Shown: positions 10,700 to 55,141 of the stretch, in pieces | Layout of the letters: every line of letters begins with the position of its first letter | Position numbering within the stretch: position 1 is the stretch's first letter | Source: an uncultured Gammaproteobacteria bacterium | Lineage (GTDB): Bacteria > Patescibacteriota > Microgenomatia > UBA8517 | Reading direction: 5' to 3' | Assembly (NCBI GenBank): GCA_964502815.1 | Contig: CAZCXV010000001.1 | Location: 71,907-135,906 of the forward strand | DNA length: 64,000 bases | Position numbers and translations under genes: made by a program | The notes under the pieces: generated by a model | What the model was told of the DNA's origin: nothing | The model's input: the letters and a program-made list of their open reading frames with translations, nothing else | Databases searched by the model: none

Positions 10700-11647
10700 A
10701 TGACAACTACTACCCCAAACATTTCCTTTATTATCCCAGCCAAAAATGAGGCAGAATCACTTCCGAAGTTATATAGCGAGATTATTTTAGAAGTAAGAAG
10801 ACTGAAGGAAAGCTATGAAATCATCTTTATTGACGACGGGTCAACCGATGAGACCTTTGCAGTTCTTAAAAAGCTTTATGCAAAAGACAAACAAGTAAGA
10901 CTAATTCGCCACAGAGGAAACTGGGGAAAGGCTGCTGCCTTACAAAACGGGTTTCAGATGTCTAGAGGTAACATTTTAATTACCCTTGATGCTGACTTAC
11001 AAGATAATCCCGCTGACATCGAAAAGTTTCTGAAAAAACTTGAGGCAGGTTATGATTTAATCGTTGGTTGGAAAAAAACAAGACATGATCCAATAAGCAA
11101 AATTATATCGTCAAGAGTTTTTAACAAAACTGTAGCCCTATTAACCAAAACCAATCTTCACGATATCAACTGCGGATTCAAGGCTTTTAGAAGGCAAGTT
11201 GTCGAAAATATTGACCTTTACGGAGAACTTTTCCGTTTCTTTCCAATATTGGCAGCTAAACAAAACTTTAAAGTCGGTGAAGTTATTGTTCATCACCGTC
11301 CAAGAAAATTTGGTAAATCCAAATTTGGCTTCGAAAGAAGCATTAAAGGCTTTTTAGACCTCTTAACTATTATATTCTTGACCAATTATACCAAAAAACC
11401 GGGACATTTCTTTGGCATGTTTGGTATGGCGTCATTTGGTTTAGGATTCTTGATCGGTCTTTACATTGTCTATCTTCGTGTCATAACTGGAACTATCCAA
11501 TACAGACATCCACTACTTTTTCTAGGAATGCTTCTTATGATAATAGGTGTGCAGTTGGTTTCAACTGGTCTTCTAGCTGAAATGTTTACCAGCTTCTCAC
11601 AAAGAAGAGGTAATTCTAAAAACTACATTAGTGAAATATTAAAGTAG
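10700..11647 (+). CDS. GT2 polyprenyl-phosphate sugar synthase (GtrB/ArnC-like) with C-terminal TM helices
   Basis: Motifs ISFIIPAKNE, FIDDGSTDET and LDADLQDNP, followed by two C-terminal TM helices. 315 aa. Confidence 0.7.
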   Translation: MTTTTPNISFIIPAKNEAESLPKLYSEIILEVRRLKESYEIIFIDDGSTDETFAVLKKLYAKDKQVRLIRHRGNWGKAAALQNGFQMSRGNILITLDADLQDNPADIEKFLKKLEAGYDLIVGWKKTRHDPISKIISSRVFNKTVALLTKTNLHDINCGFKAFRRQVVENIDLYGELFRFFPILAAKQNFKVGEVIVHHRPRKFGKSKFGFERSIKGFLDLLTIIFLTNYTKKPGHFFGMFGMASFGLGFLIGLYIVYLRVITGTIQYRHPLLFLGMLLMIIGVQLVSTGLLAEMFTSFSQRRGNSKNYISEILK

Positions 11648-11657
11648 GTATAGAAAT

Positions 11658-12365
11658 ATGATCATCTCTCACAAGCACAAGTATATTTTCATAAAGCCAA
11701 AAAAAGTTGCTGGAACAAGTATTGAAATTGCATTTAGTAAGTATCTAGGAGAAAAGGATATCATGCCTGCGCTTACCAGCTATTCCAAATCCCACGACAA
11801 AGATGAATATGATCATAAAGCTCGAAACTCAAACGGATTCTATGACCATACGCCACCAGAGAGAATAAAAAAGCAAATAGGCGAAAAGCTTTGGAACAAG
11901 TACTTCAAAGTTACTGCTATTAGAAATCCCTGGGATCTTGTGGTTTCCAGTTATTTTTGGGAATTAAACAAGAAAGTTAGTTTAAAGGATTATTTCAAAG
12001 TAGTAAATTTGAAAGCTTTAATTTTTGATTATTTAAAGGACTTTAGAAAAATCAGAAGACCAATGAACTTTACAAGTTACATCAAAAATCTGCCCAAATC
12101 ATACGTTAATACAAATTACTACTTTGACTCTAAAGGCAAACCGCTAGCAAACTACTTCATTCGATACGAAAATCTAGAAAACGATTTCAAAAAAGTTTGC
12201 AAAAAAATTGGCATTCCAGCAGAGACGCTTCTTTCCTTAAAATCTAAAACCAGAAACTCTAAGAAACACTACTCGGTCTATTATACAAAAGAAACCAGAG
12301 ATATAGTAGCCAAGATATTTGAAAAAGAAATAACTTACTTTAAGTACAAATTCGAGGCTAAGTGA
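11658..12365 (+). CDS. PAPS-dependent sulfotransferase family protein (putative carbohydrate sulfotransferase)
   Basis: A 5'-PSB-like P-loop KPKKVAGTSIE (PKxGTT-type) and a 3'-PB-like VTAIRNPWDLVVSSYF (RDPxxRxxSxY-type). Both motifs in the correct order and spacing for Sulfotransfer_2-type enzymes. 235 aa. Confidence 0.5.
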   Translation: MIISHKHKYIFIKPKKVAGTSIEIAFSKYLGEKDIMPALTSYSKSHDKDEYDHKARNSNGFYDHTPPERIKKQIGEKLWNKYFKVTAIRNPWDLVVSSYFWELNKKVSLKDYFKVVNLKALIFDYLKDFRKIRRPMNFTSYIKNLPKSYVNTNYYFDSKGKPLANYFIRYENLENDFKKVCKKIGIPAETLLSLKSKTRNSKKHYSVYYTKETRDIVAKIFEKEITYFKYKFEAK

Positions 12366-12375
12366 ACTAGCCATA

Positions 12376-14778
12376 TTACCAAAACTTTTTTATTCTTGCC
12401 TTATAAATATCGACTTCTACAGGATAAGCAAGACAGCCAAGTTTGAATACCGGATTTTTTAATCCTAGAGTGGGCAGTTTGATTGCATATTCTCTAGATA
12501 TTCCATCTGGAATAAGTTGAAATTTTTTCTGATCCCTACCATGACTTTGACTTTCCCAAATAACACAAGCAGAGATACCCTCTTTCATGTAATTTGCCAA
12601 TGAGTCTCGCTCTCTAGAGTTGTTAATATACTTATAGGGACTGTTCATTACATAACCGAGTTTATCAAGATCTAGCTGGACATACTTCGGATCTAAAAGG
12701 ATAATTTCTTGAATTCGTGGTGCGTCAGATTGTGTTTCAGTAACTGTCAGGGTTAGAGTTTTTACCCGCTGTGAAGGAAAAAATATTTTAGCCAAACCAT
12801 CCATGCCCTTGGCATATACATATTCTGTCGGTTTACCATTTATAGCAATATCAAAACCGGTAGGTTTATGGGGTGAATTTTGGAAAAACGCAAATCCTCT
12901 CAAAGTCACTGGATTATTAAACTCAACGTCTATTTTGGGGTAATTTCCGTCGTACCAACTAGCCCGATCATACTCCCAATAGGTTGAATCATCTGCATCA
13001 AAGGCCGCTGAAATTTCATGTTTGAATTTGAAATCCCCTGACAATTTACTAATTTTTTGCCTTATTTTTTTAGAGTCAGTCAAAAGATCGTAATAATAAT
13101 TGATATCTGGAATATAATTGCCTACTCCTCCGTGGCTATATGGCAACGGGAATTCAAACATACTAGCCTTTAGTGTCAAATATACTGTTGAGGGTATATT
13201 TGAATTAAATTTCTGGAGTTTAAATTCTGGTTCTGTGTTTTTGCCAACCCAAGTGCCGCTATTTGCATCCTGGAAAATTTCGGTTTCATAATGCTTACTT
13301 ATATCTTCTACCACCTCATTTTCACTATCCTCAGAAAACAACTCTTTTTTTAGATTTTCAGTTGTATCTATTAAATTGTTTTTCTGATAATAGTAACTAA
13401 AAAACTTATCTCGGACAATGCTTCCTCGTTTCCAATAGTCTATTAGTGTTTCGCTATCTGTTAATAATTCAAAATCGTCTATGTTAGCTTTAAGCGCGTA
13501 ACCAATAGAGGCTTTTGACGGGTAATGACCCACCCTTGTCAGCTCTCCGATTCCTCCAGGACCACGAGGGCCATCCAAAAAAATTACACTGCCCTTAGAT
13601 AACGTTGGGGAATATTTTTTCAACCCTTCGAAAAAATTATGCTTATTTATGCTTATTTGGGTGAGAGTATCTAGATATCTTGAAGTTAAAAAAACATTAG
13701 TTATTACTATTACAATCAATAGCCATTTAGTAATTTCTCTATGCTTGAAGGAAAACGCTCCAAGCAAAAATAAAAAACCGGGATAGAAATAGTAAAAATG
13801 CCTATCCTCTCTACCGATCCACGAAGGTGTTACCATTGCCTTAGGAATAAATTGACCAATAATCCACACTAAGGAAAAAAGTGATAACAATAATATCCTT
13901 TTATTGTTTCGGTTAACAAATGCATAGATAGCACCAGTCAACATTAAAGTTAGTCCTACCAAATATCTCAACCTTTCTGTATATAAAAAACTTAATACCT
14001 CAGGGGTATAGTCTTGCAACCTTTCGGGAATAAGGAAAAAGCTAACAGACGCAAGAAGGTGCTTGAATTTGAGAAATAAATAACTAAACGTTATTTCAGT
14101 ACTTGGCACACTCTTTGTAAAAGTCAGTATTTCTCCACTTTCTGTGTAGGGTAGATATAAATACGTGCGAAAAGTTAATAAACAAAATATCACAATCAAC
14201 AATAACTTGTTTTTCTGCTTAATCTTAAAATCAAGGAGTAACAGCAAGAAGGGGAAAATCAGCAATATATGCCCAGTCGAAAAAACTGTAAAGTATTCCA
14301 AGGAGAAGAAATATACACCAACAGCAACCAAATGATAAAACACTCTCTTATCTTTTGGAAATGAAAGGAACATTAAACTTAAGAGCGACAAGCTAATAGC
14401 AACATTGGCAAGCAAAGCATAGTATCCCAAGACAACATCCTCTCCTCCCATACTCACTAAACCTAAAGCCAATAAAAGTGCAATTGTCTGATTAAAATAT
14501 TTTTTTGAAAAAAGATAAAAAGTAAAACCAAGGACAATTCTAGACAAAAAAGAAAGAGTAAAAAATATCCTGGGCTCATCACCAAAAAATGAATACAAAC
14601 TATTTAGTACAGGACAGATAGTTTTAAAAGGCCAGAGGAACGGACAAATTTGATGTACACCATTGTAGGCCATAGTAAAGGCATCTCCAAAATAATAAAA
14701 GTCTAAAGATTTGTTAATAGCCATGAAGGCAACAACAGCTATTAGTATCGGGGCCAACAGTCTCTTAACCAAATACAT
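12376..14778 (-). CDS. large polytopic membrane protein (GT-C-like) with C-terminal discoidin/F5-8 type C-like carbohydrate-binding domain
   Basis: 800 aa. The N-terminal ~400 aa is multi-TM. The C-terminal soluble part contains …NPVTLRGFAFFQNSPHKPTGFDIAINGKPTEYVYA…, resembling discoidin domains. Confidence 0.35.
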   Translation of the reverse strand: MYLVKRLLAPILIAVVAFMAINKSLDFYYFGDAFTMAYNGVHQICPFLWPFKTICPVLNSLYSFFGDEPRIFFTLSFLSRIVLGFTFYLFSKKYFNQTIALLLALGLVSMGGEDVVLGYYALLANVAISLSLLSLMFLSFPKDKRVFYHLVAVGVYFFSLEYFTVFSTGHILLIFPFLLLLLDFKIKQKNKLLLIVIFCLLTFRTYLYLPYTESGEILTFTKSVPSTEITFSYLFLKFKHLLASVSFFLIPERLQDYTPEVLSFLYTERLRYLVGLTLMLTGAIYAFVNRNNKRILLLSLFSLVWIIGQFIPKAMVTPSWIGREDRHFYYFYPGFLFLLGAFSFKHREITKWLLIVIVITNVFLTSRYLDTLTQISINKHNFFEGLKKYSPTLSKGSVIFLDGPRGPGGIGELTRVGHYPSKASIGYALKANIDDFELLTDSETLIDYWKRGSIVRDKFFSYYYQKNNLIDTTENLKKELFSEDSENEVVEDISKHYETEIFQDANSGTWVGKNTEPEFKLQKFNSNIPSTVYLTLKASMFEFPLPYSHGGVGNYIPDINYYYDLLTDSKKIRQKISKLSGDFKFKHEISAAFDADDSTYWEYDRASWYDGNYPKIDVEFNNPVTLRGFAFFQNSPHKPTGFDIAINGKPTEYVYAKGMDGLAKIFFPSQRVKTLTLTVTETQSDAPRIQEIILLDPKYVQLDLDKLGYVMNSPYKYINNSRERDSLANYMKEGISACVIWESQSHGRDQKKFQLIPDGISREYAIKLPTLGLKNPVFKLGCLAYPVEVDIYKARIKKFW

Positions 14779-15571
14779 ATTCTTTGAATCTGAAGAAATA
14801 CCTTCCTAAGGATCTAAATTCTTTAACTGCCTTTCTTGTTGGAAACGAGAAATATCTTCCTCCTTTGTTGGTTATTGTTTTAGTTTTCTTGTTTGCAATT
14901 TCTTCAATCGCTTCACTTAGGATGGTAGATCCGACTTCAACACAACGCCAATAAAGCGAATCTTCCGTATCGGTTTTGCTAATTTCAACTTTTTTCCTTT
15001 TTATAATTTCTCCCGTATCTATGCCCTTATTTATATAGTGAACACTTATCCCAGAATATTTTTCTTTATTCACGATTGACCAAAATATCGGACTTATTCC
15101 TTTATAATCTGGTAAGTATGCTGGGTGAACATTAATCACTCCCAACTTTGGAATCCTAATAACTGGCTCCTTTAAGATTTGACTAAAAAGTACTGATATC
15201 ACCAGATCTGGCTTCTGTTTTCTAATTAGTTTGATTGACTCAATTGAGTTAATATTTGCAATCGATATCACTTTTATACCTTTATTGCTCGCTTGAGATT
15301 TATAGCTAAAAAATTTATTAGCCTTCAAAAATCCAAATAAGGAGATCATTGATGATAACTGTCTATATATTTGCAGCTTAATCAATTGATTAATAACATA
15401 ACTAAACCCAGATGTTTTCAAATAAAAAGCTAGGGTCTGAAAATTACTTTTATTCTTCAGTTGTGTTGACGGTTCGATTATTAGTTTTATCTGCGTTCCA
15501 TAAGTAGCAATCAAATCCTTCAGAATCTTGTTCGCATAAACATGGTTTACTGTTAATACTATTATTTTCAT
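14765..15571 (-). CDS. formyltransferase family protein (sugar N-formyltransferase / ArnA-FT / Fmt-like)
   Basis: …GVINVHPAYLPDYKGISPIFWSI… matches the formyl_trans_N HxSLLPxxRG-type motif. 268 aa. Adjacent to a GT2 gene. Confidence 0.6.
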   Translation of the reverse strand: MKIIVLTVNHVYANKILKDLIATYGTQIKLIIEPSTQLKNKSNFQTLAFYLKTSGFSYVINQLIKLQIYRQLSSMISLFGFLKANKFFSYKSQASNKGIKVISIANINSIESIKLIRKQKPDLVISVLFSQILKEPVIRIPKLGVINVHPAYLPDYKGISPIFWSIVNKEKYSGISVHYINKGIDTGEIIKRKKVEISKTDTEDSLYWRCVEVGSTILSEAIEEIANKKTKTITNKGGRYFSFPTRKAVKEFRSLGRYFFRFKEYVFG

Positions 15572-15574
15572 TGT

Positions 15575-16303
15575 CTATCTAGGCAAATTCTTACTAAAAA
15601 GCCACAGTTTTTTAAAATAATCAATACTATCAGATACTAAATTGACAGAAGATTGCTTCTCAGGTTTTCTTAGATATATTACTGGAATTTCTGAAACGAC
15701 AAGTCCAGCCCAAACGCTTCTGGTTACGATTTCAGTATCAAAAAACCAACGCCGGTCTTCAATTTTCGAAAGTATCGGGAGAATTTTTTTCCTATTAAAA
15801 AATTTAAATCCTGCCTCGGTATCCTTAAGCTTTATTCCAAGCAACTTATGAACGAGAAAAACATAGCCCTTGCTTAAAACAGCACGGATCAAGTTTGTAG
15901 CACCAACTGTATATATTCGTGTTGCAACAGCTAAATCAGCTCCAGATTTAATATCTGAAACAAACTCTGGAATATGTACTGGAGCTAACTCTAAATCAGT
16001 ATCAATATAACCTACAATCTCACCGCGAGCTTTCTCAATCGCGTCAATTACCGTTCCCCCTCTACCTTTGTTTCGTTTGTGAAAAAACGCTCGCACTCGC
16101 TTATCAGTTTTTGCAAAATCTGAAAATACTTCTGGTGTTGAATCTTTGCTTTTATCATCAAAAAGTATCATTTCCCAAGAGTACCTTGTACTTTCAAGAA
16201 TTCTTTTAACTTTATTAAGATTTTCCAAAAGTCCATCACCTTCATTGTAACCAGTTAATATCACTGAAAGATCTATTATTTTTGTCTTGCTCTTACTCCG
16301 CAT
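15575..16303 (-). CDS. GT2 family glycosyltransferase (DPM1/ArnC-like, short form)
   Basis: Motifs LSVILTGYNEGDGL, LFDDKSKDST and YIDTDLE. 242 aa with no predicted C-terminal TM helix. Immediately downstream of the formyltransferase. Confidence 0.55.
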   Translation of the reverse strand: MRSKSKTKIIDLSVILTGYNEGDGLLENLNKVKRILESTRYSWEMILFDDKSKDSTPEVFSDFAKTDKRVRAFFHKRNKGRGGTVIDAIEKARGEIVGYIDTDLELAPVHIPEFVSDIKSGADLAVATRIYTVGATNLIRAVLSKGYVFLVHKLLGIKLKDTEAGFKFFNRKKILPILSKIEDRRWFFDTEIVTRSVWAGLVVSEIPVIYLRKPEKQSSVNLVSDSIDYFKKLWLFSKNLPR

Positions 16304-16325
16304 GTCAGGTTATTATACACTAAAC

Positions 16326-17150
16326 ATGAAATGCTTTGTCTGCAAGAAAAATAGCTGGGAAAGTCACTACAAGGATCTTTTCCGATGTAGTAACTGCGGC
16401 TTTATAAGAGCTAAAGAAATATATTTTAAGATTAAACCTGAAGAGGTTTATGGCAAGGATTACTTTGACAAAGGACAATATGCAAATTACAAAAAAGAGA
16501 GACTGGCACTGGAACAAAATTTTAAGAACCGCTTGAAGGATATCATAAAACATAAAAGGGAAGGAAAACTTTTGGAAATAGGTTGTGCATATGGATATTT
16601 TCTAAATTTGGCCAAAAAAAATTTCATAATTAGCGGTATTGATGTAAATTCTCAAACAACTAACATTGCTAGTAAATTAACAGGGATAAAAACCCTAACT
16701 GGTGATTTTTTAACTCAAAAATTTTCTAAAAATACCTTTGATGTTGTTTCTCTTTTTGATACAATTGAACACCTTCAAAAACCAAAAGCATATCTTGAGA
16801 AAATACATACACTGTTAAAACCTGGTGGAATTGTGGCAATAGAAACGGGAGACATTGACAGTTTATTAGCTAAAGTTCAAAAAGAGAGATGGAGATTAAT
16901 AGATCCAAGTGTCCACCTTACTTACTTTAGTACCAAAACACTTAGAAATTTACTCGAAAACACCGGCTACCGTATTTTGTCAATAAAAAAAGTTTCCTTT
17001 GCAAGGTCACTTATTCAAATAACCTATCGACTCGGAATAAATAATATATTACGTCATTTAAAATTGAATTTTTTAGAAAAGTTTATTAGTAATAAAAACA
17101 TTAGCATTAATACTTATGACATCATTTTTGTAATCGCACAAAAACAATGA
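16326..17150 (+). CDS. class I SAM-dependent methyltransferase with N-terminal CxxC…CxxC zinc ribbon
   Basis: MKCFVCKK…CSNCGF zinc ribbon, then LLEIGCAYGYFLNL (motif I). The track ORF begins at 16287 but would overlap the divergent GT2 gene. The start at 16326 (MKCFVC) is more plausible. Confidence 0.55.
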   Translation: MKCFVCKKNSWESHYKDLFRCSNCGFIRAKEIYFKIKPEEVYGKDYFDKGQYANYKKERLALEQNFKNRLKDIIKHKREGKLLEIGCAYGYFLNLAKKNFIISGIDVNSQTTNIASKLTGIKTLTGDFLTQKFSKNTFDVVSLFDTIEHLQKPKAYLEKIHTLLKPGGIVAIETGDIDSLLAKVQKERWRLIDPSVHLTYFSTKTLRNLLENTGYRILSIKKVSFARSLIQITYRLGINNILRHLKLNFLEKFISNKNISINTYDIIFVIAQKQ

Positions 17151-18052
17151 AAGCAATTTTTCACAATGATGACTTTGGCCTAACCTATGGTTTTACTGAC
17201 GCCATAAAAGATAGCTTTCAAAATGGCGTTACAACAAGTACAAGCTTAAGAACAAATGGCTTTGCTTACAAATACGCAGTTAAACTTTCCAAAGGACCGC
17301 TTAGAAAAATTGGCTTGGGTTTGCACGTTAATATTACCCAAGGAAAAGCACACACTAAAGGCGAAGTAGAAAAATTTGGTGTATATAAGTATAACTTTCG
17401 AAAACTATTTTTGAAGTTATTTGTTATGAACCTACTTAAAATGAAGCAGGGTGTTTTGCTCAAAGATCTTGAGCGAGAAATTGAAGCTCAGTTTGTAATA
17501 GTACTCAAGAAAGACAAGTTAAAAATTTCCCGAGTTGATGGCCACGATCATATACACATGATCCCTGAAGTCTTTCATATAGTTTGTAAGTTATGCAAAA
17601 AATACAACATCGGCTATATTCGCATCCCAAGAGAACCTTTTTATTTTACAGGTTTTCTGAAACAGGATCTTAAAATGATATTCAGCGACAACCTCTTGAA
17701 AGCTCTTATTTTGACTATTTTGTCTGCGGTAAACATTAAGATTGCCAAATCTTATAAACTTAAAACTGTTGACGCCTATTACGGGCTTCTTAATTCAAAC
17801 AATATGAGCTTTTTGGCCATCAATGCAGCTCTTTTGAATGCTTCAAGAAATAATTACGATACTATAGAAATTAATTCACATCCTGCAATAATTAACGATC
17901 CAAGAGATGTAAACTACGTTGACAATTTTATATCCAAATATGCCAATCTAAACACTAGAGAAATTGAACATCTAGGTCTTAAAAGTCAGTTAGTAAAGAA
18001 AACAATTAAGAAATATAAAATTAAACTGACGAACTGTGAAAATATTATTTGA
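17147..18052 (+). CDS. YdjC/ChbG/HpnK-family carbohydrate deacetylase
   Basis: N-terminal HNDDFGLTYGFTDAIKDSFQNGVTTSTSL and the later DGHDHIHM match YdjC-family metal-binding motifs. 301 aa. Confidence 0.55.
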   Translation: MKAIFHNDDFGLTYGFTDAIKDSFQNGVTTSTSLRTNGFAYKYAVKLSKGPLRKIGLGLHVNITQGKAHTKGEVEKFGVYKYNFRKLFLKLFVMNLLKMKQGVLLKDLEREIEAQFVIVLKKDKLKISRVDGHDHIHMIPEVFHIVCKLCKKYNIGYIRIPREPFYFTGFLKQDLKMIFSDNLLKALILTILSAVNIKIAKSYKLKTVDAYYGLLNSNNMSFLAINAALLNASRNNYDTIEINSHPAIINDPRDVNYVDNFISKYANLNTREIEHLGLKSQLVKKTIKKYKIKLTNCENII

Positions 18053-18665
18053 TAATATGTTCTACGAAATAATTAGAAAACTGCTTTGTCCTTTTGGAGA
18101 AATCGAAAAATTTGTTCCAGACTCTGGAAAAATACTTGACGTTGGTTGTGGACACGGAACATTTGCCAGGATTCTTTCTAGGGGCCACTATAATAGAAAA
18201 ATATTAGGAATAGACCCATCTGGTCATAAAATAGCTCTTGCCAAAAAATACTCTAATGGTTTCAAAAATGTTAAATTCGAAAAAAAGTATCTTTCACAAG
18301 TTAGAGGTAAGTACGATTGTATACTATTCATAGATGTATTGTATCTATTTCCTGATAGCGAGAAACTCGAGAGATTGAAGGAGGCTAACAAGGTTCTTAA
18401 AAAGGGTGGTACTTTATTAGTCAAGACTTCCAGTACTGAACCAAAAATACTATTCAAACTACTTCAACTTGAAGAAACCATTATGGTAAAAATTTTAGGC
18501 TATACTTATTCAGACAGGAAAGCGTTTTACTTTTCAACGATCAAGAAGCATAAAAATATAATACAACAGGCGGGATTTAAATTAATGAACTTTTCAATAT
18601 TCAAAAGCACTTTTCCCTATCGTCACCCAACTTATGTTGCACAAAAAACTAGTCAAATTAATTAG
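18036..18665 (+). CDS. class I SAM-dependent methyltransferase
   Basis: Motif I ILDVGCGHGTFARIL. 209 aa. Confidence 0.55.
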   Translation: MKILFDNMFYEIIRKLLCPFGEIEKFVPDSGKILDVGCGHGTFARILSRGHYNRKILGIDPSGHKIALAKKYSNGFKNVKFEKKYLSQVRGKYDCILFIDVLYLFPDSEKLERLKEANKVLKKGGTLLVKTSSTEPKILFKLLQLEETIMVKILGYTYSDRKAFYFSTIKKHKNIIQQAGFKLMNFSIFKSTFPYRHPTYVAQKTSQIN

Positions 18666-20094
18666 CCCAACTCTTATTATCGCTATTAGCTGGCAGATTA
18701 TACTTTTTTTTAGAATACCTACCTTTGTCTGGGAAAATGGCCTAGTTACCCCGTGGTTTATAAAAAATGGCTTAGTCATGCATAGAGATTTCGATCCTGG
18801 GGCATATTTGCCCCTTCCACAGCTTATTATTATAATTTTGGACAGAATCTTCAAAGGAAATATTCTTTTGACGGTATATATTTCCTTAATACAACCCTTA
18901 ACAGCTCTTTTTGTAGTCTACGCTATTAGCTATAAATTTATTTCAAAGAAAGCCGCATCAATAGCAAGCATCTACTTTGCAATCTGGTTTGGTTTCATTC
19001 TGAAACAAAATGTTTTTGACATTAATCTGCTAATCGGAATATTGGTATTGTTAATGATGGCCATTTTCTACATTTGGCTTGAGAAACGAAGCAACAAGCA
19101 TCTTTTCTTATTGGGATTTGTATCGTCCATAGCCTTATTTTCTCAACAGATGACTTTAGTTCCAATTAGCATTCTCTTTCTTTTAGTAATCTTTAATCTT
19201 TGGAGAAAGGTCAGAAATTATAAAAAGGTTGTCATGTCGAGTGTATGGCTTGTAGTAGGACTTGTTCCGATTACTTGTGTAGTAGTCGCGTACTTTCTTC
19301 TAAATGGGGTTTTTCGCGAATTCTTAGACGCAACAGTTCTGTATTATTTTGATACATCCCGATATCCCGCTTTCGAATTTAGTTTCAATCCACGTGATCT
19401 TATCATGCTTACAACAATGTCTATGCCTAGCTTACTTTTGCTACTAATCAATCTTAGAAAAAATAAAGAGAAAAAAACTGGCCTTTTACTGCTTATTTTC
19501 TTAACTACCTTCTCAATTTTCTTTGCAGTTTTTCACCCAAGGCGCTTTCTCTATTTATTGCCACTACAATCATTTGCAGCTGGCTGGATATTTCAACACC
19601 TCTCTGAGCTCAGAAATTGGAAAAAGAACATTACCATAATCAGTCTCATATTATTTAGCGTGTATTTAGTAATAAATATTTATCCTTGGTACAGAACTAC
19701 TATTAGTAGGGGTAGAATATATAAAAACTATGGATTGCCAGAACCAGGAGATTATGTATACGAAGCAAGTAAGTGGATCAGAGACAACTCTTCAACCAAC
19801 AGCAAAATTCATATATTAGGTCCTAACATTCTTTATTGGCAAACACAAAGACTGCCTGCAAACAAAAAAACATACTCTGCTCTTCCTTGGACATATGAAC
19901 CTTTTGAGGAAACAAAAAATCTTTTCACTCAAAATCCAGCTGATTATTGGCTTGTTGATGAGCGACTATTCGTAAGATTTACCAATTGGGGATATGAATA
20001 TCAATCCAAATTCCTCCGTGAGTTTCTTGATAATCAATATGAAAAAGTATTTAATAAAGACTGGATGTCTGTATATCAACATAAAACTCCGTGA
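18634..20094 (+). CDS. polytopic membrane protein, putative GT-C-like glycosyltransferase (paralog of 20091-21539)
   Basis: 486 aa, about 10 predicted TM helices and a C-terminal soluble domain. Shares the C-terminal YSALPW(T/H)… motif with the next gene. Confidence 0.3.
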   Translation: MLHKKLVKLISPTLIIAISWQIILFFRIPTFVWENGLVTPWFIKNGLVMHRDFDPGAYLPLPQLIIIILDRIFKGNILLTVYISLIQPLTALFVVYAISYKFISKKAASIASIYFAIWFGFILKQNVFDINLLIGILVLLMMAIFYIWLEKRSNKHLFLLGFVSSIALFSQQMTLVPISILFLLVIFNLWRKVRNYKKVVMSSVWLVVGLVPITCVVVAYFLLNGVFREFLDATVLYYFDTSRYPAFEFSFNPRDLIMLTTMSMPSLLLLLINLRKNKEKKTGLLLLIFLTTFSIFFAVFHPRRFLYLLPLQSFAAGWIFQHLSELRNWKKNITIISLILFSVYLVINIYPWYRTTISRGRIYKNYGLPEPGDYVYEASKWIRDNSSTNSKIHILGPNILYWQTQRLPANKKTYSALPWTYEPFEETKNLFTQNPADYWLVDERLFVRFTNWGYEYQSKFLREFLDNQYEKVFNKDWMSVYQHKTP

Positions 20095-21539
20095 GCAAAA
20101 CTAAACTACCCACAATTACTCTTGTTGTAGCTTTATTCTGGCACACCATGTTTTTTTTAAATTCTCCGAAGCTAACCTGGATACCAGCTTTTCTAAACAC
20201 CTGGTTTTTCGAAAAAGGACTTACCTACTATAAAGATTTCATTCAATTACATTTTCCGCTCCCCCATTTAATTGCTTATCCACTTTATAGGTTTACTAAT
20301 TGGAACATCTTGGTAGAACCACTTATGGCCTATATCATAGTCATTACCACTACTTACTTGGTATATATTCTTACAAAGAATAAAATTGGAGACATTGGTA
20401 GATCTTTAAGCTTAATATTTTTTTCTTTAACTTTCTGGAAAGCAAGTACCTGGATTCAGTATTCTGGTGAGTCAGTGATTGGAATTTTCTTAGTTGCAAG
20501 TGTCTTCTGCCTGTATACATTCTGGAAAAGTAGTAAAAGACTAAGTATTGTTTCATTCCTGTTTGGGTTTCTCTTTTCACTAAGCGTCTTGTCAGGACAA
20601 ATTGTTATTCCCACCATTACCTCGCTTGTAGTTTTATACATTCTTTTGCTTCTTAAAAAAGATCTAACGAAAAAGGAAACAATAATGACTTTTCTTAGTT
20701 TGTGCCTCGGGTTAATAATTCCATTTACAATAATCTCGCTATATTTTGTGAGTAAAACTGCATTTAATGACTTCTTTTTCTGGAACATACCTTATTATTT
20801 AACTTACGCCAAACTAGCTCGAGAAAACAGTTCCAGCTTACCCTGGGCTGAAATATTCTTTTTCTTTTCACCAGCTATTCTCTTGACAATTTTAGCGATC
20901 ACTTCAAAAAAGAAAGATTTTTTAAGTATTATTTTGATTTGCGCTTCTCTTCCTTCAATTTACTTTATAGTCAAAAGTATTTTTCATCCCCACCACCTTC
21001 TTTTCGTTCTACCAATCCTAGCAATTTGTTTAGGAAAATCAATAGATCTAATTGAACAAAAAAAACAAATTATCATTTCTGCCATTTTTTTATTATTCAT
21101 TTTTGCCTATGCAGTACTCAATTTACTTCCTTGGCATATATATCGAATCAAACAAGGCGACAGGAATTATAATGATATCTCAACAGAAAAAAATACTGTT
21201 GAATTTACTCTTTGGCTAAAAGCGAATATCGGTAATAAAAAAACAACTGTTGTCGGTGACCCGATGTTATACTACTATGCAAACTTAACGCCTGCTAATA
21301 AGTACTATTCTGCCCTACCTTGGCACTTCTTGCCCATTGAAAAGACAGCCAAGGAGTTTGAATACAAACCTCCAGAGTATTGGATTATAGATATAAACTA
21401 CTTAAAGCGTTTTGATGGTCCCTGGAAAGCAACCAAAGTAAGACAATTTATTTCTAACAAGATAGATGACTGTTGCAGCTTAATTTACGAAAATCCACCT
21501 TGGCAAGTCTGGAAAGCTAATCCAAATACCAAACTTTAA
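20091..21539 (+). CDS. polytopic membrane protein, putative GT-C-like glycosyltransferase (paralog of 18634-20094)
   Basis: 482 aa. Same architecture and shared motifs (…HFPLPHLIAYPLYRF… and YYSALPWHFLP). 4-bp overlap with the upstream gene. Confidence 0.3.
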   Translation: MSKTKLPTITLVVALFWHTMFFLNSPKLTWIPAFLNTWFFEKGLTYYKDFIQLHFPLPHLIAYPLYRFTNWNILVEPLMAYIIVITTTYLVYILTKNKIGDIGRSLSLIFFSLTFWKASTWIQYSGESVIGIFLVASVFCLYTFWKSSKRLSIVSFLFGFLFSLSVLSGQIVIPTITSLVVLYILLLLKKDLTKKETIMTFLSLCLGLIIPFTIISLYFVSKTAFNDFFFWNIPYYLTYAKLARENSSSLPWAEIFFFFSPAILLTILAITSKKKDFLSIILICASLPSIYFIVKSIFHPHHLLFVLPILAICLGKSIDLIEQKKQIIISAIFLLFIFAYAVLNLLPWHIYRIKQGDRNYNDISTEKNTVEFTLWLKANIGNKKTTVVGDPMLYYYANLTPANKYYSALPWHFLPIEKTAKEFEYKPPEYWIIDINYLKRFDGPWKATKVRQFISNKIDDCCSLIYENPPWQVWKANPNTKL

Positions 21540-24014: not shown

Positions 24015-25090
24015 ATTATCGTACAAAAATATCTTTTGGGTAGCCAAACCGTTTTTAATGTCAAAATAAGCCCAGCTAAGTGGTAAACGAGTAATAGCGC
24101 TATACCTTTCAAGGTTTGAATCTTCTGCAAGTACCATTGAAGAAAGTTCAATCGCTGGCTCTTTTGGGTTAGTAGTTTTCTTTCCATTAAAGTATCTGAA
24201 ACATATTCCCCAGCAAGTTTGTTTGCATAAAATGATGGATGCTGGTCATTCGGATTTAAAACCAATAGTTTTTTATCTTCTACTCCTTTGAATTTCTCAT
24301 ACAAATCGATTACTTTGATGTTGTTATTGCTTGCTAAGGTTGATATCGTTTCGTGAAAAAAACTGAATTGATAATTACGATTAGGATTCAATGCATCATA
24401 TTGAGGAAAAACAACTAAAACCGGTGTTGCATTTATTTTCTTTACAGAATTGGAAAACATTTCCAGAAGTTGTTTAGTACGGTCATATTCCCCACTGCCC
24501 AAAGTATATGCTTTTTTAACCTCTGACATAGTTTTGTTTCCAGATTTAACCTTTTCTATCATGCCATGTGTCAACCAATAGATTCGCAGTGAACGAACTA
24601 ATTTACTTTTTACATATTTTGGTGGAAATTCTTTAAACACAAAATCTTGAGCATTTATCCCAATTAGCACCAAATCTGGATTAAAAGCAAGGCCTTCATC
24701 ATTAAGACGAGTCAGTTCGGTTTCAAAATTAAAGCCTGGTCTAGCTGCGTTAATTATCTCAACATTTGAAAATCCATACTGTTTCACAAGATATTCCTTC
24801 ATTACCTCAGGAAATGACTGCCCTTTTTCAAGATACCATCCGTAAGTATATGAATCGCCTAAGATATATATTCGGATCGTATCCTTATTTTTTTCTATTT
24901 TTACCTCTTTCTCCCAATAGCCAAAATTATTTAAAACTACGTTTTTCGACAACCAGTCAAAATCGTTTCTTTTGTACCTGGGATCAAGAAATGGTGGGTG
25001 CCAAAATATCCTCAGTAGAACCTCTACAAACAGAAGAACTGCAAGTGTAACTCCAAATATTTTCAAAAGTTTCAAATAGAGAGCTTTCAT
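24011..25090 (-). CDS. membrane-anchored SGNH/GDSL-family hydrolase
   Basis: An N-terminal TM helix, then the block I motif IYILGDSYTYG and a C-terminal DQH (DxxH) catalytic motif. 359 aa. Paralog of 32118-33209. Confidence 0.5.
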   Translation of the reverse strand: MKALYLKLLKIFGVTLAVLLFVEVLLRIFWHPPFLDPRYKRNDFDWLSKNVVLNNFGYWEKEVKIEKNKDTIRIYILGDSYTYGWYLEKGQSFPEVMKEYLVKQYGFSNVEIINAARPGFNFETELTRLNDEGLAFNPDLVLIGINAQDFVFKEFPPKYVKSKLVRSLRIYWLTHGMIEKVKSGNKTMSEVKKAYTLGSGEYDRTKQLLEMFSNSVKKINATPVLVVFPQYDALNPNRNYQFSFFHETISTLASNNNIKVIDLYEKFKGVEDKKLLVLNPNDQHPSFYANKLAGEYVSDTLMERKLLTQKSQRLNFLQWYLQKIQTLKGIALLLVYHLAGLILTLKTVWLPKRYFCTII

Positions 25091-26169
25091 TTGATTAAGA
25101 ATGGCTTGACTAACCTTGCCACCTTAATTACCTCACTGTCAGTTACAACAGCGTCCAGTGGCAATGTGGCTACTTTATCTCCGACGTATTCTGTAACAGG
25201 CAATTTTTTAGTCCGATATTTCTCAAAAGCTGGCTGCAGGTGTAAAGGTGTAAAATGAAATGAACAACCAACTCCATTCTTTTTCATATGCTCAAAAAAT
25301 TTATCTCTATCTTTAACCAATACAGGGTACAAATGCAGACCTTTGTTATCAAGATCTAGCAGTTTATTATATAAATTTACAACATGAGTTCTCCTTTTCA
25401 GAAACCCGTTAAGCCTTTTCAACTGTACTCTGCCTAAAGCCGAGTTAATATCCGTCGTGTTAACCTTATATCCTGGAAATTCGACTGTGTAAATCCATTT
25501 TGAATTAAGATTGTATCGTTTCCAAGCATCTTTAGATAATCCATGCAATCTCGCTTTCCGAAACCAATCTGCAACTTTATCATCTGATGTAGTAAGCATT
25601 CCACCTTCACCAGTGGTCATGTTTTTTGTTGCATAAAATGAGTATGCAGTTGCAAACGCCTTGTTATTGTCACAACCACTTTCTGTCAAATGTGCACTAT
25701 CTTCAATTACTGGAATCTCTGTCTTTATTTTTGCTTTATTTGCTGCGTAATGGACTGGGATTACCGCCTTGGTTTTTCGAGATAATACCGATTCAAGTGA
25801 TTTCTGGTCCATAGTAAAGGTATCTTCATTGATATCAGCAAAAACAGGTGTCGCTCCAACATGGACAATAACACTTACGGAGGAAGCAAAAGTAAACGAA
25901 GGCACTATTACCTCATCACCTGGCCCAACGTTCAAAGCTTTCAAAGCAAGGAATAGAGCAGAGGTAGCACTGTTAACCGCCACTGCGTGTTTAGCGCCAA
26001 CATATCTTGCAAATTCATCCTCAAATTTTAACGTCTCATGTCCCATGGTCAACCAACCGCTTTTGAGCACTCTAGTAACGGCATTTATCTCTGCCTTTCT
26101 TATAGAAGCTCTGGTCAATGGTATTTGCTTCATATTCTTTACGATAAACCTCATTAACTTGCCACCCAT
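25087..26169 (-). CDS. DegT/DnrJ/EryC1/StrS-family PLP-dependent sugar aminotransferase
   Basis: …FEDEFARYVGAKHAVAVNSATSALFLALKAL… plus the PLP-lysine region SFYATKNMTTGEGGM. 360 aa. Confidence 0.7.
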   Translation of the reverse strand: MGGKLMRFIVKNMKQIPLTRASIRKAEINAVTRVLKSGWLTMGHETLKFEDEFARYVGAKHAVAVNSATSALFLALKALNVGPGDEVIVPSFTFASSVSVIVHVGATPVFADINEDTFTMDQKSLESVLSRKTKAVIPVHYAANKAKIKTEIPVIEDSAHLTESGCDNNKAFATAYSFYATKNMTTGEGGMLTTSDDKVADWFRKARLHGLSKDAWKRYNLNSKWIYTVEFPGYKVNTTDINSALGRVQLKRLNGFLKRRTHVVNLYNKLLDLDNKGLHLYPVLVKDRDKFFEHMKKNGVGCSFHFTPLHLQPAFEKYRTKKLPVTEYVGDKVATLPLDAVVTDSEVIKVARLVKPFLIK

Positions 26170-27569
26170 TTAAGATAAGGTGTGTATTTCTTTAATATTT
26201 GATAAATCTTTCTATTATCTCCAATTTCTGACGCCATTAATAGATCTGTCAAGTCCTCATCTTGAAAAATTTTACCATTTTTGTTTTTTGCCATTCTAAT
26301 TCTATCAATTGACGTTTTAACAACATTTTCCTCATCGTTAAACAACTCTTCTGACATCTTTTCTCCTGGCCTAACACCAGTATAGTTGATTTTTATTTCT
26401 TCGTCCGGAATAAAACCAGCAAGTCTAATCATTGTTCGCGCGAGATTATCTATCTTTATTTGTTCACCCATATCTAGAACAAAAACTTCTCCACCTGTAC
26501 TTAAAATCGAAGCATGCAACACTAGCTGAACCGCCTCAGGAATAGACATAAAATAACGGATCATTCTTTTATCTGTGACAGTTACTGGTCCTCCCTTTGC
26601 TATTTGTCTTTTAAACGTCGGGACAACACTTCCTACGCTTCCAAACACATTACCAAATCTAACAGCACAGTATTGAGTTCTATTTTTGTTATTAAACCCG
26701 GAAATAATCTTTTCACCCACTAGTTTCGTCGCTCCCATAATACTTGTTGGATTAACGGCTTTATCTGTTGATAAGTAAACAAATTTCTCTACTCCCCTTT
26801 CATATGCCGCTCTAGCTACATTGTGGGTACCAGCGACATTGTTTTTGATGGCTTCTTCGGGAAATATTTGCATCAGTGGTACATGTTTGTAGGCCGCAGC
26901 ATGAAAAACAATTTCAGGATTGTATTCTCTCATGACTTCGTACAACTTTTTATAGTCTCGAATGTTTGCAATTGAGTAATAAATACGATCTTTGTATTCC
27001 TTGAGTTCGACTCCAAGCTCATATAAACCATTTTCAGACCAATCAAGCGCAATAATCTTTTTTGGATTGCAAGATACTAGTTGCCTGCAGATCTCAGACC
27101 CAATCGATCCAGCTGCTCCAGTTATTAGGATTGTTTTGTTTTTAAATTTCTTTTTGAATAACTCTACACTTGATTTCAAAATAGCTCTACCTAAAATGTC
27201 TTCTACTTGTATTTCTCTTACTTGCTGTAGTTTTACTTTGCCTTCAACTATTTCCGAGAGTCTAGGAATGATTTTGAACTGTACTTTAACTTCCCTGCAC
27301 AAATCTATGATTCTCCTGACCGTTTCACCCTCACCTGAAGGAATAGCTATAAACACTTCGTTAATATGATATTTACTAATAAGCTGTGGAAGTTCGTTTG
27401 TATTACCCAAGACATTAAAGGAATTAATTTTTTGCTTTTGTTTTTTTGGGTCGTCATCAACAAGGCCAATTATTTCGTAAAAGTTAGGTAAATTCTTTAC
27501 TATTTCATCAACCAATTCTTGACCAGCAACTCCTGCACCAACAATTAATATTTTTTGTTTTTCTCTCAT
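26154..27569 (-). CDS. polysaccharide biosynthesis protein, NDP-sugar 4,6-dehydratase (CapD/PglF/WbpM-like)
   Basis: Two Rossmann motifs (ILIVGAGVAGQELV and KTILITGAAGSIGSEICRQLV). 471 aa, the size and architecture of CapD-like dehydratases. Confidence 0.65.
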   Translation of the reverse strand: MREKQKILIVGAGVAGQELVDEIVKNLPNFYEIIGLVDDDPKKQKQKINSFNVLGNTNELPQLISKYHINEVFIAIPSGEGETVRRIIDLCREVKVQFKIIPRLSEIVEGKVKLQQVREIQVEDILGRAILKSSVELFKKKFKNKTILITGAAGSIGSEICRQLVSCNPKKIIALDWSENGLYELGVELKEYKDRIYYSIANIRDYKKLYEVMREYNPEIVFHAAAYKHVPLMQIFPEEAIKNNVAGTHNVARAAYERGVEKFVYLSTDKAVNPTSIMGATKLVGEKIISGFNNKNRTQYCAVRFGNVFGSVGSVVPTFKRQIAKGGPVTVTDKRMIRYFMSIPEAVQLVLHASILSTGGEVFVLDMGEQIKIDNLARTMIRLAGFIPDEEIKINYTGVRPGEKMSEELFNDEENVVKTSIDRIRMAKNKNGKIFQDEDLTDLLMASEIGDNRKIYQILKKYTPYLKWVAS

Positions 27570-41805: not shown

Positions 41806-41813
41806 ATCTTAAG

Positions 41814-55137: not shown

Positions 55138-55141
55138 ATTC

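Follow-up and report, generated by a model that had tools for sequence, protein, structure and literature searches.

In tiny uncultured bacteria, the genes for a small glycosyltransferase, a formyltransferase-fold enzyme and a large membrane glycosyltransferase form a single conserved unit. In the window, the whole 64,000-nucleotide stretch of DNA analysed here, the three genes are tightly packed on the minus strand and are transcribed in the order GT2s (a polyprenyl-phosphate-type GT2), FT (the formyltransferase-fold enzyme) and M800 (a GT-C protein). We propose that this cassette, with a dehydratase and an aminotransferase encoded in the same window, constitutes an Arn-like polyprenyl-phosphate route that brings an N-formylated amino sugar onto the cell surface. 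We put the probability of this reading at about 60%. If it is true, the logic of polymyxin resistance in gut bacteria is used here for a surface sugar. The evidence supports a likeness to Arn in shared logic, not membership of the Arn system.

A first-pass annotation had placed a formyltransferase beside a polyprenyl-phosphate-type GT2, and this observation holds. Both open reading frames (14765-15571 and 15575-16303) are present on the minus strand, although the GT2 does not follow FT as had been written: on the coding strand it comes first. The stop of FT and the start of M800 overlap by 14 nt (the overlap sequence was inspected). The other elements cited from the window are also real, namely the DegT-family and YdjC-family genes listed below and at least 13 GT-C genes.

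10700..11647, plus strand: full-length ArnC/GtrB-type GT2, 315 aa, two C-terminal TM helices (TM segments at 237-297)
12376..14778, minus strand: M800, 800 aa, GT-C-fold glycosyltransferase with a CBM32/discoidin-like domain
14765..15571, minus strand: FT, 268 aa, stand-alone N-formyltransferase-fold enzyme of an unnamed family (PF00551)
15098..15139, minus strand: catalytic motif of FT, VINVHPAYLPDYKG, with Asn147 and His149 (direct translation)
15317..15454, minus strand: family-specific insertion of FT, about 46 aa, residues 40-85 (alignment A3, AF2 model)
15575..16303, minus strand: GT2s, 242 aa, polyprenyl-phosphate-type GT2 without transmembrane helices, first gene of the unit
16287..17150, plus strand: Methyltransf_23 methyltransferase with an N-terminal Cys4 motif, divergent from GT2s (PF13489, E 3e-26)
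17147..18052, plus strand: YdjC-family deacylase in a divergent operon (PF04794, E 7e-41)
25087..26169, minus strand: DegT-family sugar C4-aminotransferase, ArnB/PseC type (PF01041, E 2e-91)
26154..27569, minus strand: PseB/PglF/CapD-type UDP-GlcNAc 4,6-dehydratase (PF02719 Polysacc_synt_2, E 6e-114)

The formyltransferase

FT matches Pfam Formyl_trans_N at E 4.3e-29 (102 bits, cut-off 26.1) over residues 111-222. The motif quoted in the annotation is the exact translation of its minus-strand coordinates, and alignment A1 shows no substitution at N147, H149, P150, L153, P154 or G158. The Asn/His/Asp triad, which had been marked for inspection, is complete: all 24 homologues keep N147, H149 and D185, and these residues line up with the triads of ArnA, Fmt and PurN. 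The unnamed family comprises about 40 proteins. All of them carry the insertion, which is absent from ArnA-FT and Fmt (alignment A3) and is modelled by AF2 as two helices, 43-54 and 56-79 (pLDDT of the FT model, 93.5). Within it G55 is invariant and Y58 occurs in at least 90% of the family.

Could FT be a housekeeping enzyme, that is, a truncated methionyl-tRNA formyltransferase, PurN or a formyl-THF hydrolase (PurU-like, or the hydrolase domain of FDH)? Its best single-sequence matches are to the Fmt N-domain (TIGR00460, 119 bits; B. anthracis Fmt, E 5e-20), and hydrolases share the Asn/His/Asp triad. FT nevertheless passes none of the curated NCBIfam cut-offs for Fmt, ArnA or PurN, and it falls far under those for Fmt (201.5 bits) and PurN (150 bits). 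The domain search found neither Formyl_trans_C nor another C-terminal domain, in agreement with the annotated lack of a tRNA-binding domain; only about 45 aa follow the catalytic core. Nor is such a domain encoded downstream, where the next open reading frame is a membrane protein. In the tree the family forms its own clade (core bootstrap 100) apart from E. coli Fmt and PurN; the clustering with either that the annotation had named as evidence against a sugar enzyme is not seen. Finally, the family always lies in sugar-modification operons. We consider the housekeeping reading very improbable and largely refuted.

FT was also considered as an ArnA orthologue, and this assignment was rejected. 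Its score is 103 bits where 777 are required, it stands alone without the dehydrogenase (UDP-GlcA decarboxylase) domain, it lacks the C-terminal subdomain of ArnA-FT (about 100 aa) and it carries the insertion that ArnA-FT does not have.

Among solved relatives, ArnA-FT tops the family profile at 114 bits, with WbkC (111) and Fmt (109) nearly equal, followed by FdtF (96) and WlaRD (86). Foldseek matches FT to Fmt, ArnA-FT and WbkC at TM scores of about 0.6-0.66. ArnA-like, WbkC-like and Fmt-like affinities of FT are thus not separable by sequence or fold. FT has its fold and catalytic triad in common with WbkC, FdtF, WlaRD, VioF, PseJ and Rv3404c, and WbkC and VioF are stand-alone enzymes of similar length. 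Identity to the solved nucleotide-sugar N-formyltransferases is only 17-24%, however, and the insertion, a short C-terminal tail (GGRYFSFPT...) and a DTEDSLYW motif set the family apart from them. PseJ, deposited as a formyltransferase, acts on the PseB/PseC product, a substrate of the type that we propose for FT. We know of no solved nucleotide-sugar N-formyltransferase for which pairing with a polyprenyl-phosphate GT2 or fusion to a GT-C has been reported.

The two glycosyltransferases of the unit

GT2s matches Pfam Glycos_transf_2 (PF00535) at E 7e-27. Its strong matches among solved structures are all polyprenyl-phosphate GT2s (GtrB, 3e-14; Pyrococcus DPMS, 1e-13; ArnC, 1e-12); the next best is chondroitin synthase at 2e-7. 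The DTDLE of GT2s aligns with DADLQN of ArnC. Conservation extends to R129, R140 and D161; the DxD, Arg and Asp positions match those named for ArnC, GtrB and DPMS. By alignment, GT2s has a catalytic domain of the GtrB/DPMS/ArnC type, with the juxtamembrane helices and the acceptor-phosphate arginines. The likeness to ArnC that had been claimed for it stands for the catalytic domain and fails for the two TM helices of ArnC: TM-segment prediction found no hydrophobic segment in GT2s, whose C-terminus falls where ArnC TM1 begins. The retained juxtamembrane helices may serve in membrane association. The GT2 at 10700-11647 does have the two helices.

M800 has about 10 TM helices in residues 1-390, followed by an extracytoplasmic CBM32/discoidin-like domain. 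D32, in the first loop past TM1, is invariant. Members of its family, which is detected only with the full HMMER search, match PMT_2, CBM_AftD and F5_F8_type_C. The AF2 model (pLDDT 86.7) matches AftD, ALG12, STT3, PglB, ArnT and CBM32 modules in Foldseek.

Conserved gene context

In each of the 13 informative loci FT has a GT2s orthologue as its neighbour, and the two genes often overlap by 4 nt. The loci come from bacteria with GC contents of 32-49% and from a single archaeon. The relatives belong to Microgenomates (Patescibacteria); the hosts are probably Patescibacteria and the one archaeon, and lipid A is therefore an unlikely acceptor. An ArnB/PseC-type aminotransferase usually lies just upstream of the GT2s-FT pair: in L003, L005, L090, L091 and L092 a DegT gene borders the pair directly on that side, and in L001 and L103 one gene intervenes. 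A GT-C gene lies downstream of FT in the window, L001, L003, L090 and L094; in L003 the position right after FT is occupied by a YfhO-family protein. In L094 and L105, two independent assemblies of one relative (99.7% identical), FT and the M800-type GT-C form a single in-frame fusion. FolD, which makes N10-formyl-THF, adjoins FT in the archaeal locus (L092). Locus L104 has GT2s with DegT and SDR genes and without FT, an arrangement that ties the GT2s family to amino sugars.

A second alternative is that FT is an ordinary enzyme of the FdtF/WlaRD/VioF/WbkC type serving a conventional cytoplasmic glycosyltransferase and a Und-PP-linked repeat unit, its adjacency to GT2s and the GT-C reflecting only the density of the glycosylation island. 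The profile scores of short stand-alone enzymes (240-275 aa), which nearly equal that of ArnA-FT, fit this view, as do the GT4 and GT2 enzymes and the Wzx-like flippase of the island. Against it, FT pairs with a single GT2 orthologue group at every informative locus, with stop and start codons often overlapping, and one lineage has the FT-GT-C fusion. The aminotransferase, moreover, is of the ArnB/PseC (UDP, C4) type and not of the 3-aminotransferase type, and no FdtA/QdtA isomerase occurs in the cassette (the L003 copy is in a separate operon on the opposite strand). The ordinary reading is quite unlikely, and the dTDP 3-amino sugar product that the annotation had offered as its FdtF/WlaRD alternative is disfavoured by the aminotransferase type and the strict GT2 pairing.

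The sugar

In the window the dehydratase and aminotransferase genes overlap on the same strand, 9 kb from the cassette. The aminotransferase scores best in NCBIfam with ArnB (272 bits) and PseC (254 bits), the dehydratase with PseB (206 bits) and FnlA (165 bits), all below cut-off. The window DegT protein is 57-66% identical to those encoded directly upstream of GT2s-FT in L003, L090 and L091. It is a probable supplier of amino sugar to the cassette, and the dehydratase is the probable first step. Because the dehydratase is PseB/PglF-like, a UDP-4-amino-4,6-dideoxy-HexNAc is a more probable sugar than Ara4N. The keto-sugar-forming SDR is not the same across loci, which leaves the identity of the sugar uncertain and perhaps variable.

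The proposed route and the order of its steps

In the Arn-like route, UDP-GlcNAc would be converted to UDP-4-keto-6-deoxy-HexNAc and transaminated at C4. FT, with its evident fold and its triad of Asn147, His149 and Asp185, would then transfer a formyl group from N10-formyl-tetrahydrofolate to the 4-amino group of this putative substrate. By analogy with Arn, formylation would probably drive the aminotransferase equilibrium forward and make the sugar acceptable to the GT2; ArnC takes only the formylated UDP-sugar (PMC12690121). GT2s would next act at the cytoplasmic face, passing the formamido sugar of the UDP donor to polyprenyl phosphate, and the lipid-linked sugar would cross the membrane through a flippase. 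M800, clearly a GT-C by fold, would take it as donor and pass it to an extracytoplasmic glycan or protein, the CBM32-like domain perhaps binding the acceptor glycan.

Does formylation precede lipid transfer? In the reverse order, GT2s would load an amino or N-acetylamino sugar on polyprenyl phosphate and FT would formylate the lipid-linked free amine before flipping; in the lineage with YdjC, the amine would arise by NaxD-like deacetylation. The helical insertion or the GT-C fusion would keep FT at the membrane. The fusion of FT to a polytopic membrane protein suits this order, and the two-helix insertion has hydrophobic faces and replaces a substrate-contacting loop of Fmt and ArnA; yet it is too weakly hydrophobic for a TM segment. 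GT2s precedes FT in transcription, but operon position does not set reaction order, and arnC likewise precedes arnA. YdjC enzymes act on Und-P-HexNAc (PMC11279074), and the YdjC gene is divergently adjacent to GT2s in the window, L094/L105 and L096; YdjC occurs, however, in only 3 of the 13 loci. L104, with GT2s and DegT and no FT, is also compatible with loading of an unformylated sugar. Against this stand the ArnC requirement given above and the use of nucleotide sugars by all characterised sugar N-formyltransferases among the solved-structure matches. We judge the reverse order unlikely.

Comparison with known systems

The Arn (Pmr) system of Enterobacteria (ArnB, ArnC, ArnA, ArnD, ArnT, ArnE/F) shares with the cassette four enzyme types: a DegT C4-aminotransferase, a polyprenyl-phosphate GT2, an N10-formyl-THF-type formyltransferase and a GT-C. 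The cassette order also matches E. coli arnB-arnC-arnA-arnD-arnT. M800 differs from ArnT in carrying CBM32-like domains; ArnT is among its structural matches, but the M800 family lies nearer to PMT_2 and AftD. Neither ArnD nor ArnE/F belongs to the cassette. The annotated Arn-like lipid-linked N-formyl-aminosugar route is therefore supported in part: it agrees with the conserved context, but FT is no ArnA orthologue, GT2s is without the ArnC helices and Ara4N is the less likely sugar. No ArnD-type deformylase is present, and YdjC, the candidate that the annotation had put forward, is absent from 10 of the 13 loci. Deformylation is accordingly not a conserved step, and without a conserved deformylase the formyl group is probably kept, unlike in Arn.

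Published descriptions of three-component glycosylation systems with polyprenyl-phosphate sugars, namely GtrA/GtrB/GtrC and CsbB or GtlA with GtcA and YfhO/GtlB (PMC5836110, PMC7389260), set out a similar sequence of a cytoplasmic GT2, a C55-P-sugar, flipping and an outside GT-C. The cassette shares this logic of GT2 then GT-C, and the L003 YfhO-family protein recalls it. The known three-component systems transfer Glc, GlcNAc or Gal without a sugar-modifying formyltransferase or aminotransferase, and their GT2s have TM helices. No flippase for the lipid-linked sugar was identified, and no GtrA/GtcA-type gene was found; the gaps around the cassette leave no room for a small ORF.

In Francisella and Acinetobacter, FlmF2-NaxD-FlmK converts Und-P-GalNAc to Und-P-GalN and transfers it to lipid A, NaxD being the YdjC enzyme that deacetylates Und-P-GalNAc (PMC11279074). 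This route likewise combines a GT2, a YdjC-family deacylase and a GT-C around a lipid-linked amino sugar, but it has no formyltransferase or aminotransferase, and YdjC is not core to the cassette.

Accessory genes and neighbours

YdjC is a lineage-specific accessory outside the conserved core, with orthologues only in L094/L105 and L096. The methyltransferase is a recurrent accessory, with orthologues of 45-51% identity in L090, where it lies between GT2s and FT, and in L094. The same island holds several further polyprenyl-phosphate GT2s and many GT-Cs, so that donor-enzyme pairings are drawn from adjacency. Among these GT2s, the one at 10700-11647 matches NCBIfam ArnC at E 2.7e-51 (174 bits, cut-off 529). 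Its orthologues, of 54-62% identity, lie near FT in L001, L090 and L094, and in L103 a 315-aa GT2 resembles it in position and length.

RESULTS AND DISCUSSION

A cassette conserved in bacteria and an archaeon

Three genes on the minus strand of the window, which has a GC content of 34-35%, form what we call the cassette. They encode GT2s, a polyprenyl-phosphate-type GT2 without transmembrane (TM) helices; FT, a Formyl_trans_N protein; and M800, a GT-C protein. A second, longer GT2 is encoded nearby.

Features of the cassette region
16303..15575, minus strand: GT2s, 242 aa (ORF list; Pfam Glycos_transf_2, E = 7e-27)
15571..14765, minus strand: FT, 268 aa (ORF list; Pfam Formyl_trans_N, PF00551, E = 4e-29, residues 111-222)
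14778..12376, minus strand: M800, 800 aa (ORF list; no Pfam match)
10700-11647: full-length ArnC/GtrB look-alike GT2, 315 aa (ArnC model, 174 bits; two TM helices)

FT starts 3 nt past the GT2s stop, and the M800 ATG lies within the last FT codons, giving a 14-nt overlap (ATGTATTTGGTTAA). The first-pass annotation had reported the FT and GT2 ORFs, which the ORF list and Pfam bear out, and an FT motif that proves to be an exact translation. It was also right that the two genes are adjacent; their order has to be reversed, as GT2s comes first in the direction of transcription. A promoter and terminator scan of 12000-18500 returned sites no more numerous than expected by chance.

A methyltransferase ORF diverges from GT2s (16287-16326 / 16303). 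With a TTG start it overlaps the GT2s start by 17 nt; the gene caller places its start 13 codons later, which leaves a gap of only ~22 nt between the divergent genes, so that both promoters must fall inside coding sequence. For this stretch the scan with consensus promoters was uninformative. Between the ArnC-like GT2 and the GT-C gene lies a sulfotransferase-family protein (11658-12365; Sulfotransfer_2, E = 3e-7), kept at 59% identity in L094/L105 (L numbers label other contigs with related loci), which hints at sulfated surface glycans.

How widely is this arrangement conserved? With duplicates set apart, 13 loci are informative: the window, L001, L003, L005, L008, L009, L090, L091, L092, L094/L105, L096, L098 and L103. 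A GT2s orthologue accompanies FT in all 13, at 43-61% identity (weaker in L005) and often with a 4-nt overlap; a single gene intervenes in L090 and L092. A sugar aminotransferase of the DegT family is encoded directly upstream of GT2s in L003, L090, L091 and L092, directly upstream of FT in L005, and one gene off in L001 and L103. These aminotransferases score best against ArnB or PseC (that of L005 against LegC), all below the NCBIfam cut-off. FT is followed by an M800-family member, as detected by a family HMM, in the window, L090, L001 and L009, by YfhO in L003 and, two genes on, by a GT87-like protein in L005. The order DegT-GT2-FT-GT-C matches that of arnB-arnC-arnA-arnD-arnT in Escherichia coli.

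The only DegT gene detected in the window (25087-26169) encodes a protein that shares 57-66% identity with the DegTs encoded beside the cassette in L003, L090 and L091. It overlaps the gene for a PseB/PglF/CapD-type UDP-GlcNAc 4,6-dehydratase (PF02719, E = 6e-114). This gene context points to a putative substrate route for FT through a PseB/PglF-type dehydratase rather than through UDP-L-Ara4N. A pseudaminic-acid pathway was considered and rejected: the annotated ORFs include no PseG, PseI or NeuB-like gene.

L092 (7540-11624) reads DegT-GT2s-Hexapep acetyltransferase-FT and has genes for ribosomal proteins L1, L10/P0 and P1 upstream; it is an archaeal locus. Convergent with FT and right after it is FolD (methylene-THF dehydrogenase/cyclohydrolase). 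This enzyme makes N10-formyl-THF and would supply the formyl donor locally. Named homologues belong to Curtissbacteria, within the Microgenomates group of Patescibacteria, and to Chisholmbacteria. The window, in which no marker gene occurs, probably derives from this radiation too. The cassette is real and conserved, in Patescibacteria-type bacteria and in at least one archaeon.

FT defines its own formyltransferase family

FT scores 102 bits against PF00551 (cut-off 26.1), which places it in the formyltransferase superfamily. Its AF2 model is confident (pLDDT 93.5, pTM 0.90), and Foldseek matches it with probability 1.00 to Fmt, ArnA-FT and WbkC (TM ~0.6-0.66). It passes no NCBIfam equivalog cut-off.

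Scores of FT against NCBIfam models
fmt (TIGR00460): 119 bits; cut-off 201.5
ArnA, bifunctional (NF005998): 103 bits, residues 84-237 only; cut-off 777
PurN (TIGR00639): 80.5 bits; cut-off 150.1
dTDP-4-amino-4,6-dideoxyglucose formyltransferase: 64 bits; cut-off 238

A search of 5.8 billion proteins found ~38 full-length relatives of 263-287 aa, 33-57% identical to FT and none of them named. N147, H149 and D185 are invariant in an alignment of 24 family members and align with N102/H104/D140 of ArnA, N108/H110/D146 of Fmt and N106/H108/D144 of PurN (numbering of the E. coli sequences); the Asn/His/Asp catalytic triad is present. Two features set FT apart from ArnA-FT and Fmt. An insertion of ~46 aa (residues 40-85), absent from both, forms two helices in the model (43-54 and 56-79). 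The C-terminal subdomain of the ArnA/Fmt type is missing: FT ends ~45 aa past the core, leaving ~100 ArnA/Fmt residues without counterpart in the alignment (the ArnA subdomain spans about residues 200-304). Pfam detects no fused SDR or UDP-GlcA decarboxylase domain in FT. The tail of the family carries the motifs DTEDSLYW and GGRYFSFPT.

Against solved structures the family profile scores highest, and nearly level, with ArnA-FT (114 bits), WbkC (111) and Fmt (109), followed by FdtF (96), PseJ (91), WlaRD (86) and PurN (~70-80). Neither single-sequence nor fold comparison assigned FT to the ArnA, WbkC or Fmt lineage. In a bootstrapped neighbor-joining tree, built without full WbkC, VioF, FdtF, WlaRD, PseJ and Rv3404c sequences, the FT family forms a clade of its own (bootstrap 100% for the core). 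E. coli Fmt falls outside it, as does a distinct PurN-like group; relative to ArnA-FT, the tree did not settle where the FT family belongs. FT could in principle be a conventional dTDP- or UDP-sugar formyltransferase with no relation to the GT2, a family that the FdtF and WlaRD matches bring to mind; we consider this improbable for a gene accompanied by GT2s at every informative locus.

A housekeeping role is most improbable. FT has the catalytic triad and much of the fold in common with Fmt, and the fmt model gives its highest NCBIfam score; Pfam finds no Formyl_trans_C domain (PF02911) in it, so the original statement that FT lacks a tRNA-binding C-domain holds. Clustering with Fmt or PurN combined with a separate tRNA-binding domain was not observed. 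When contigs were scanned with patterns from the full FT alignment, which were generic (N[IVF]HP..LPxY), the matches, from Bacteroidota and other groups, were all Fmt-like genes of the ordinary kind and included no true family members.

A predicted polyprenyl-phosphate GT2 without TM helices

The only strong matches of GT2s among solved structures are polyprenyl-phosphate GT2s: GtrB (3e-14), Pyrococcus DPMS (1e-13) and ArnC (1e-12). The next match is five orders of magnitude weaker. We aligned GT2s with 11 orthologues, the 315-aa GT2 of the window and E. coli ArnC. The GT2s sequence DTDLE aligns on DADLQN of ArnC, and R129, R140 and D161, each at least 90% conserved, fall on ArnC positions for which the structural study of that enzyme describes coordination of the acceptor phosphate or the role of candidate catalytic Asp (PMC12690121).

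Where, then, is the membrane anchor? No hydrophobic segment was found in GT2s, let alone two or more C-terminal TM helices. The protein terminates exactly at the start of ArnC TM1 and keeps both juxtamembrane helices; against the ArnC equivalog (NF007986) it scores 55 bits (cut-off 529). Given the structural matches, the aligned motifs, the end point at TM1 and the lack of a hydrophobic segment, GT2s is, on sequence grounds, a TM-less GT2 of the polyprenyl-phosphate type. Its initial description as DPM1/ArnC-like suits the catalytic domain and fails for the anchor.

With more than 230 matches, the GT2s family exceeds the FT family in size. On the Candidatus Curtissbacteria contig JANLHP010000022.1 (L104, 6001-9795) a member is paired with DegT and two SDR genes at a locus that has no formyltransferase, which shows that the link to amino sugars reaches more widely in the GT2s family than in the FT family. 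In L009 (12293-13681), two genes downstream of FT, a 462-aa fusion protein joins a paralogue of the small GT2 to a SAM methyltransferase domain.

M800 and a natural FT::GT-C fusion

M800 has ~10 TM helices within residues 1-390, followed by a beta-rich domain. The protein itself matches nothing in Pfam or NCBIfam, and a word-indexed protein search returned only its own fragment and one protein of 1052 aa; a full HMMER search found ~30 full-length relatives at 24-32% identity. Within the family, some members match PMT_2 (5/21), CBM_AftD (6/21) or F5_F8_type_C (4/21). The family alignment shows an invariant Asp, D32, directly after TM1 (consensus FYFWHDDF), together with invariant cysteines. The AF2 model (pLDDT 86.7) matches AftD (3e-8), ALG12, STT3, AglB and PglB in Foldseek, as well as many CBM32 modules; ArnT (5f15; 1e-4, TMt 0.46) is one among several GT-C matches. 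The polytopic N-terminal part of M800 has the GT-C fold, with D32 as the acidic residue of the first loop outside the membrane; on its modelled structure M800 is a GT-C glycosyltransferase with a predicted lectin-like extracytoplasmic domain. BLASTP finds no similarity of M800 to the protein of 817 aa that follows FT in L001; their kinship is visible only by the family HMM.

In two contigs FT is fused in frame to an M800 homologue, giving a protein of 1052 aa with the junction ...DEYLGLKLNMKFLS...:

L094 9449-12607: FT::GT-C fusion gene (JGI contig Ga0075746_101)
L105 6255-9413: FT::GT-C fusion gene (ENA contig ERZ27254732 k141_57358)

Over 14 kb the contigs share 99.7% identity; two nucleotides distinguish the fusion ORFs, both away from the junction. 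Synteny between this relative and the window extends for ~20 kb, with amino-acid identities of 40-60%. FT represents a subfamily of formyltransferases, as yet unannotated, that is firmly linked to a polyprenyl-phosphate GT2 lacking TM helices and to a GT-C.

A proposed Arn-like route and its alternatives

In Enterobacteria, the Arn pathway employs ArnB (aminotransferase), ArnC (GT2), ArnA (formyltransferase and dehydrogenase), ArnD (deformylase), ArnT (GT-C) and ArnE/F. The Arn-like route proposed in the first-pass annotation survives as a working logic, upheld by conserved gene order, folds and motifs; membership in the Arn families does not. FT fails the ArnA equivalog score and lacks the C-terminal subdomain and dehydrogenase domain of that enzyme, GT2s fails the ArnC score and lacks the TM helices, and the Pfam annotations of the 13 loci, the window among them, contain neither an ArnD-type deformylase (CE4, PF01522) nor a gene resembling ArnE/F. 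A deacylase of the YdjC family (17147-18052, plus strand) had been put forward as a candidate deformylase. Its presence in 3 of the 13 loci (the window, L094/L105 and L096) does not fit a conserved ArnD equivalent; it may be a lineage-specific extra outside the core. The cassette would also work like the three-component GtrB/CsbB-YfhO systems.

The best-supported reading of the cassette is an Arn-like route in five steps. A dehydratase and the aminotransferase would make a UDP-4-amino sugar, in the window most likely UDP-4-amino-4,6-dideoxy-HexNAc. FT would formylate its amine with N10-formyl-THF, GT2s would load the sugar onto polyprenyl phosphate, some flippase would carry the lipid-linked sugar across the membrane, and the GT-C would transfer it to an extracytoplasmic acceptor. 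Folds, catalytic motifs, gene linkage and the fusion are observed. From these we infer the substrates, the order of the second and third steps, and the acceptor.

In the Arn pathway (summarized in PMC12650200), ArnC takes only the formylated sugar (PMC12690121), which offers a rationale for the strict pairing of FT with GT2. The main rival to the five-step route reverses the order, with FT acting at the membrane after lipid loading. The FT::GT-C fusion and the helical insertion of FT would both allow this, and NaxD, which acts on Und-P-GalNAc, provides a YdjC precedent (PMC11279074); we nonetheless rate it as unlikely. A bolder idea, tentative and with a somewhat small chance of being right, is that GT2s, FT and the GT-C form one membrane-bound assembly: FT, with its two-helix insertion, would dock the GT2 while tethered to the GT-C or, as in L094 and L105, fused to it, and might formylate the amino sugar at the membrane, perhaps while that sugar sits on polyprenyl phosphate and not on UDP. 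If so, Patescibacteria and some DPANN-like archaea would have surface glycans that permanently bear formamido sugars, FT would add a new class of substrates to those of formyltransferases, and a DPM1-like GT2 would be anchored in a new way.

Patescibacteria (CPR) and DPANN archaea are episymbionts that rely on cell-cell contact, yet to our knowledge almost nothing is established about the chemistry of their surfaces. The five-step route makes a testable prediction for the surface, a formamido 6-deoxy-amino sugar carried there on polyprenyl phosphate. It would extend the Arn logic (aminate, formylate, load onto lipid, transfer outside) beyond lipid A modification in Proteobacteria. That logic is familiar; what is new are the taxa, the likely sugar and the fusion, all directly testable. 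The catalogue of enzymes gains an unannotated formyltransferase subfamily, a family of predicted TM-less polyprenyl-phosphate GT2s and a new GT-C family, and the natural fusion is a handle on the coupling between sugar tailoring in the cytoplasm and transfer outside the membrane.

The surrounding glycosylation island

All 64 kb of the window belong to a single glycosylation island. At least 13 membrane glycosyltransferases of the GT-C type (PMT_2, YfhO and M800 types) are encoded in it, in the stretches 28724-63155 (for example 40138-50084, 53482-56917 and 60783-63155) and 18634-23526; six paralogous genes of ~550 aa stand in tandem at 40138-50084 (minus strand). The island is also rich in GT2, GT4 and methyltransferase genes and encodes DUF5667 proteins. 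At 1295-2884, adjoining a cupin and a nucleotidyltransferase, a 529-aa protein joins an NAD-dependent epimerase/dehydratase domain to a TIM barrel that resembles xylose isomerase (AP_endonuc_2), perhaps an uncommon fusion that modifies sugars.

In several loci the cassette has genes for membrane-anchored SGNH/GDSL hydrolases as neighbours:

Window 24011-25090 and 32118-33209
L003 13421-14353
L005 7685-9079
L009 16256-18013
L094 231-1853

With their esterase or O-acyl-transfer folds they were set aside as deformylases; they may O-acylate or de-acylate the glycan.
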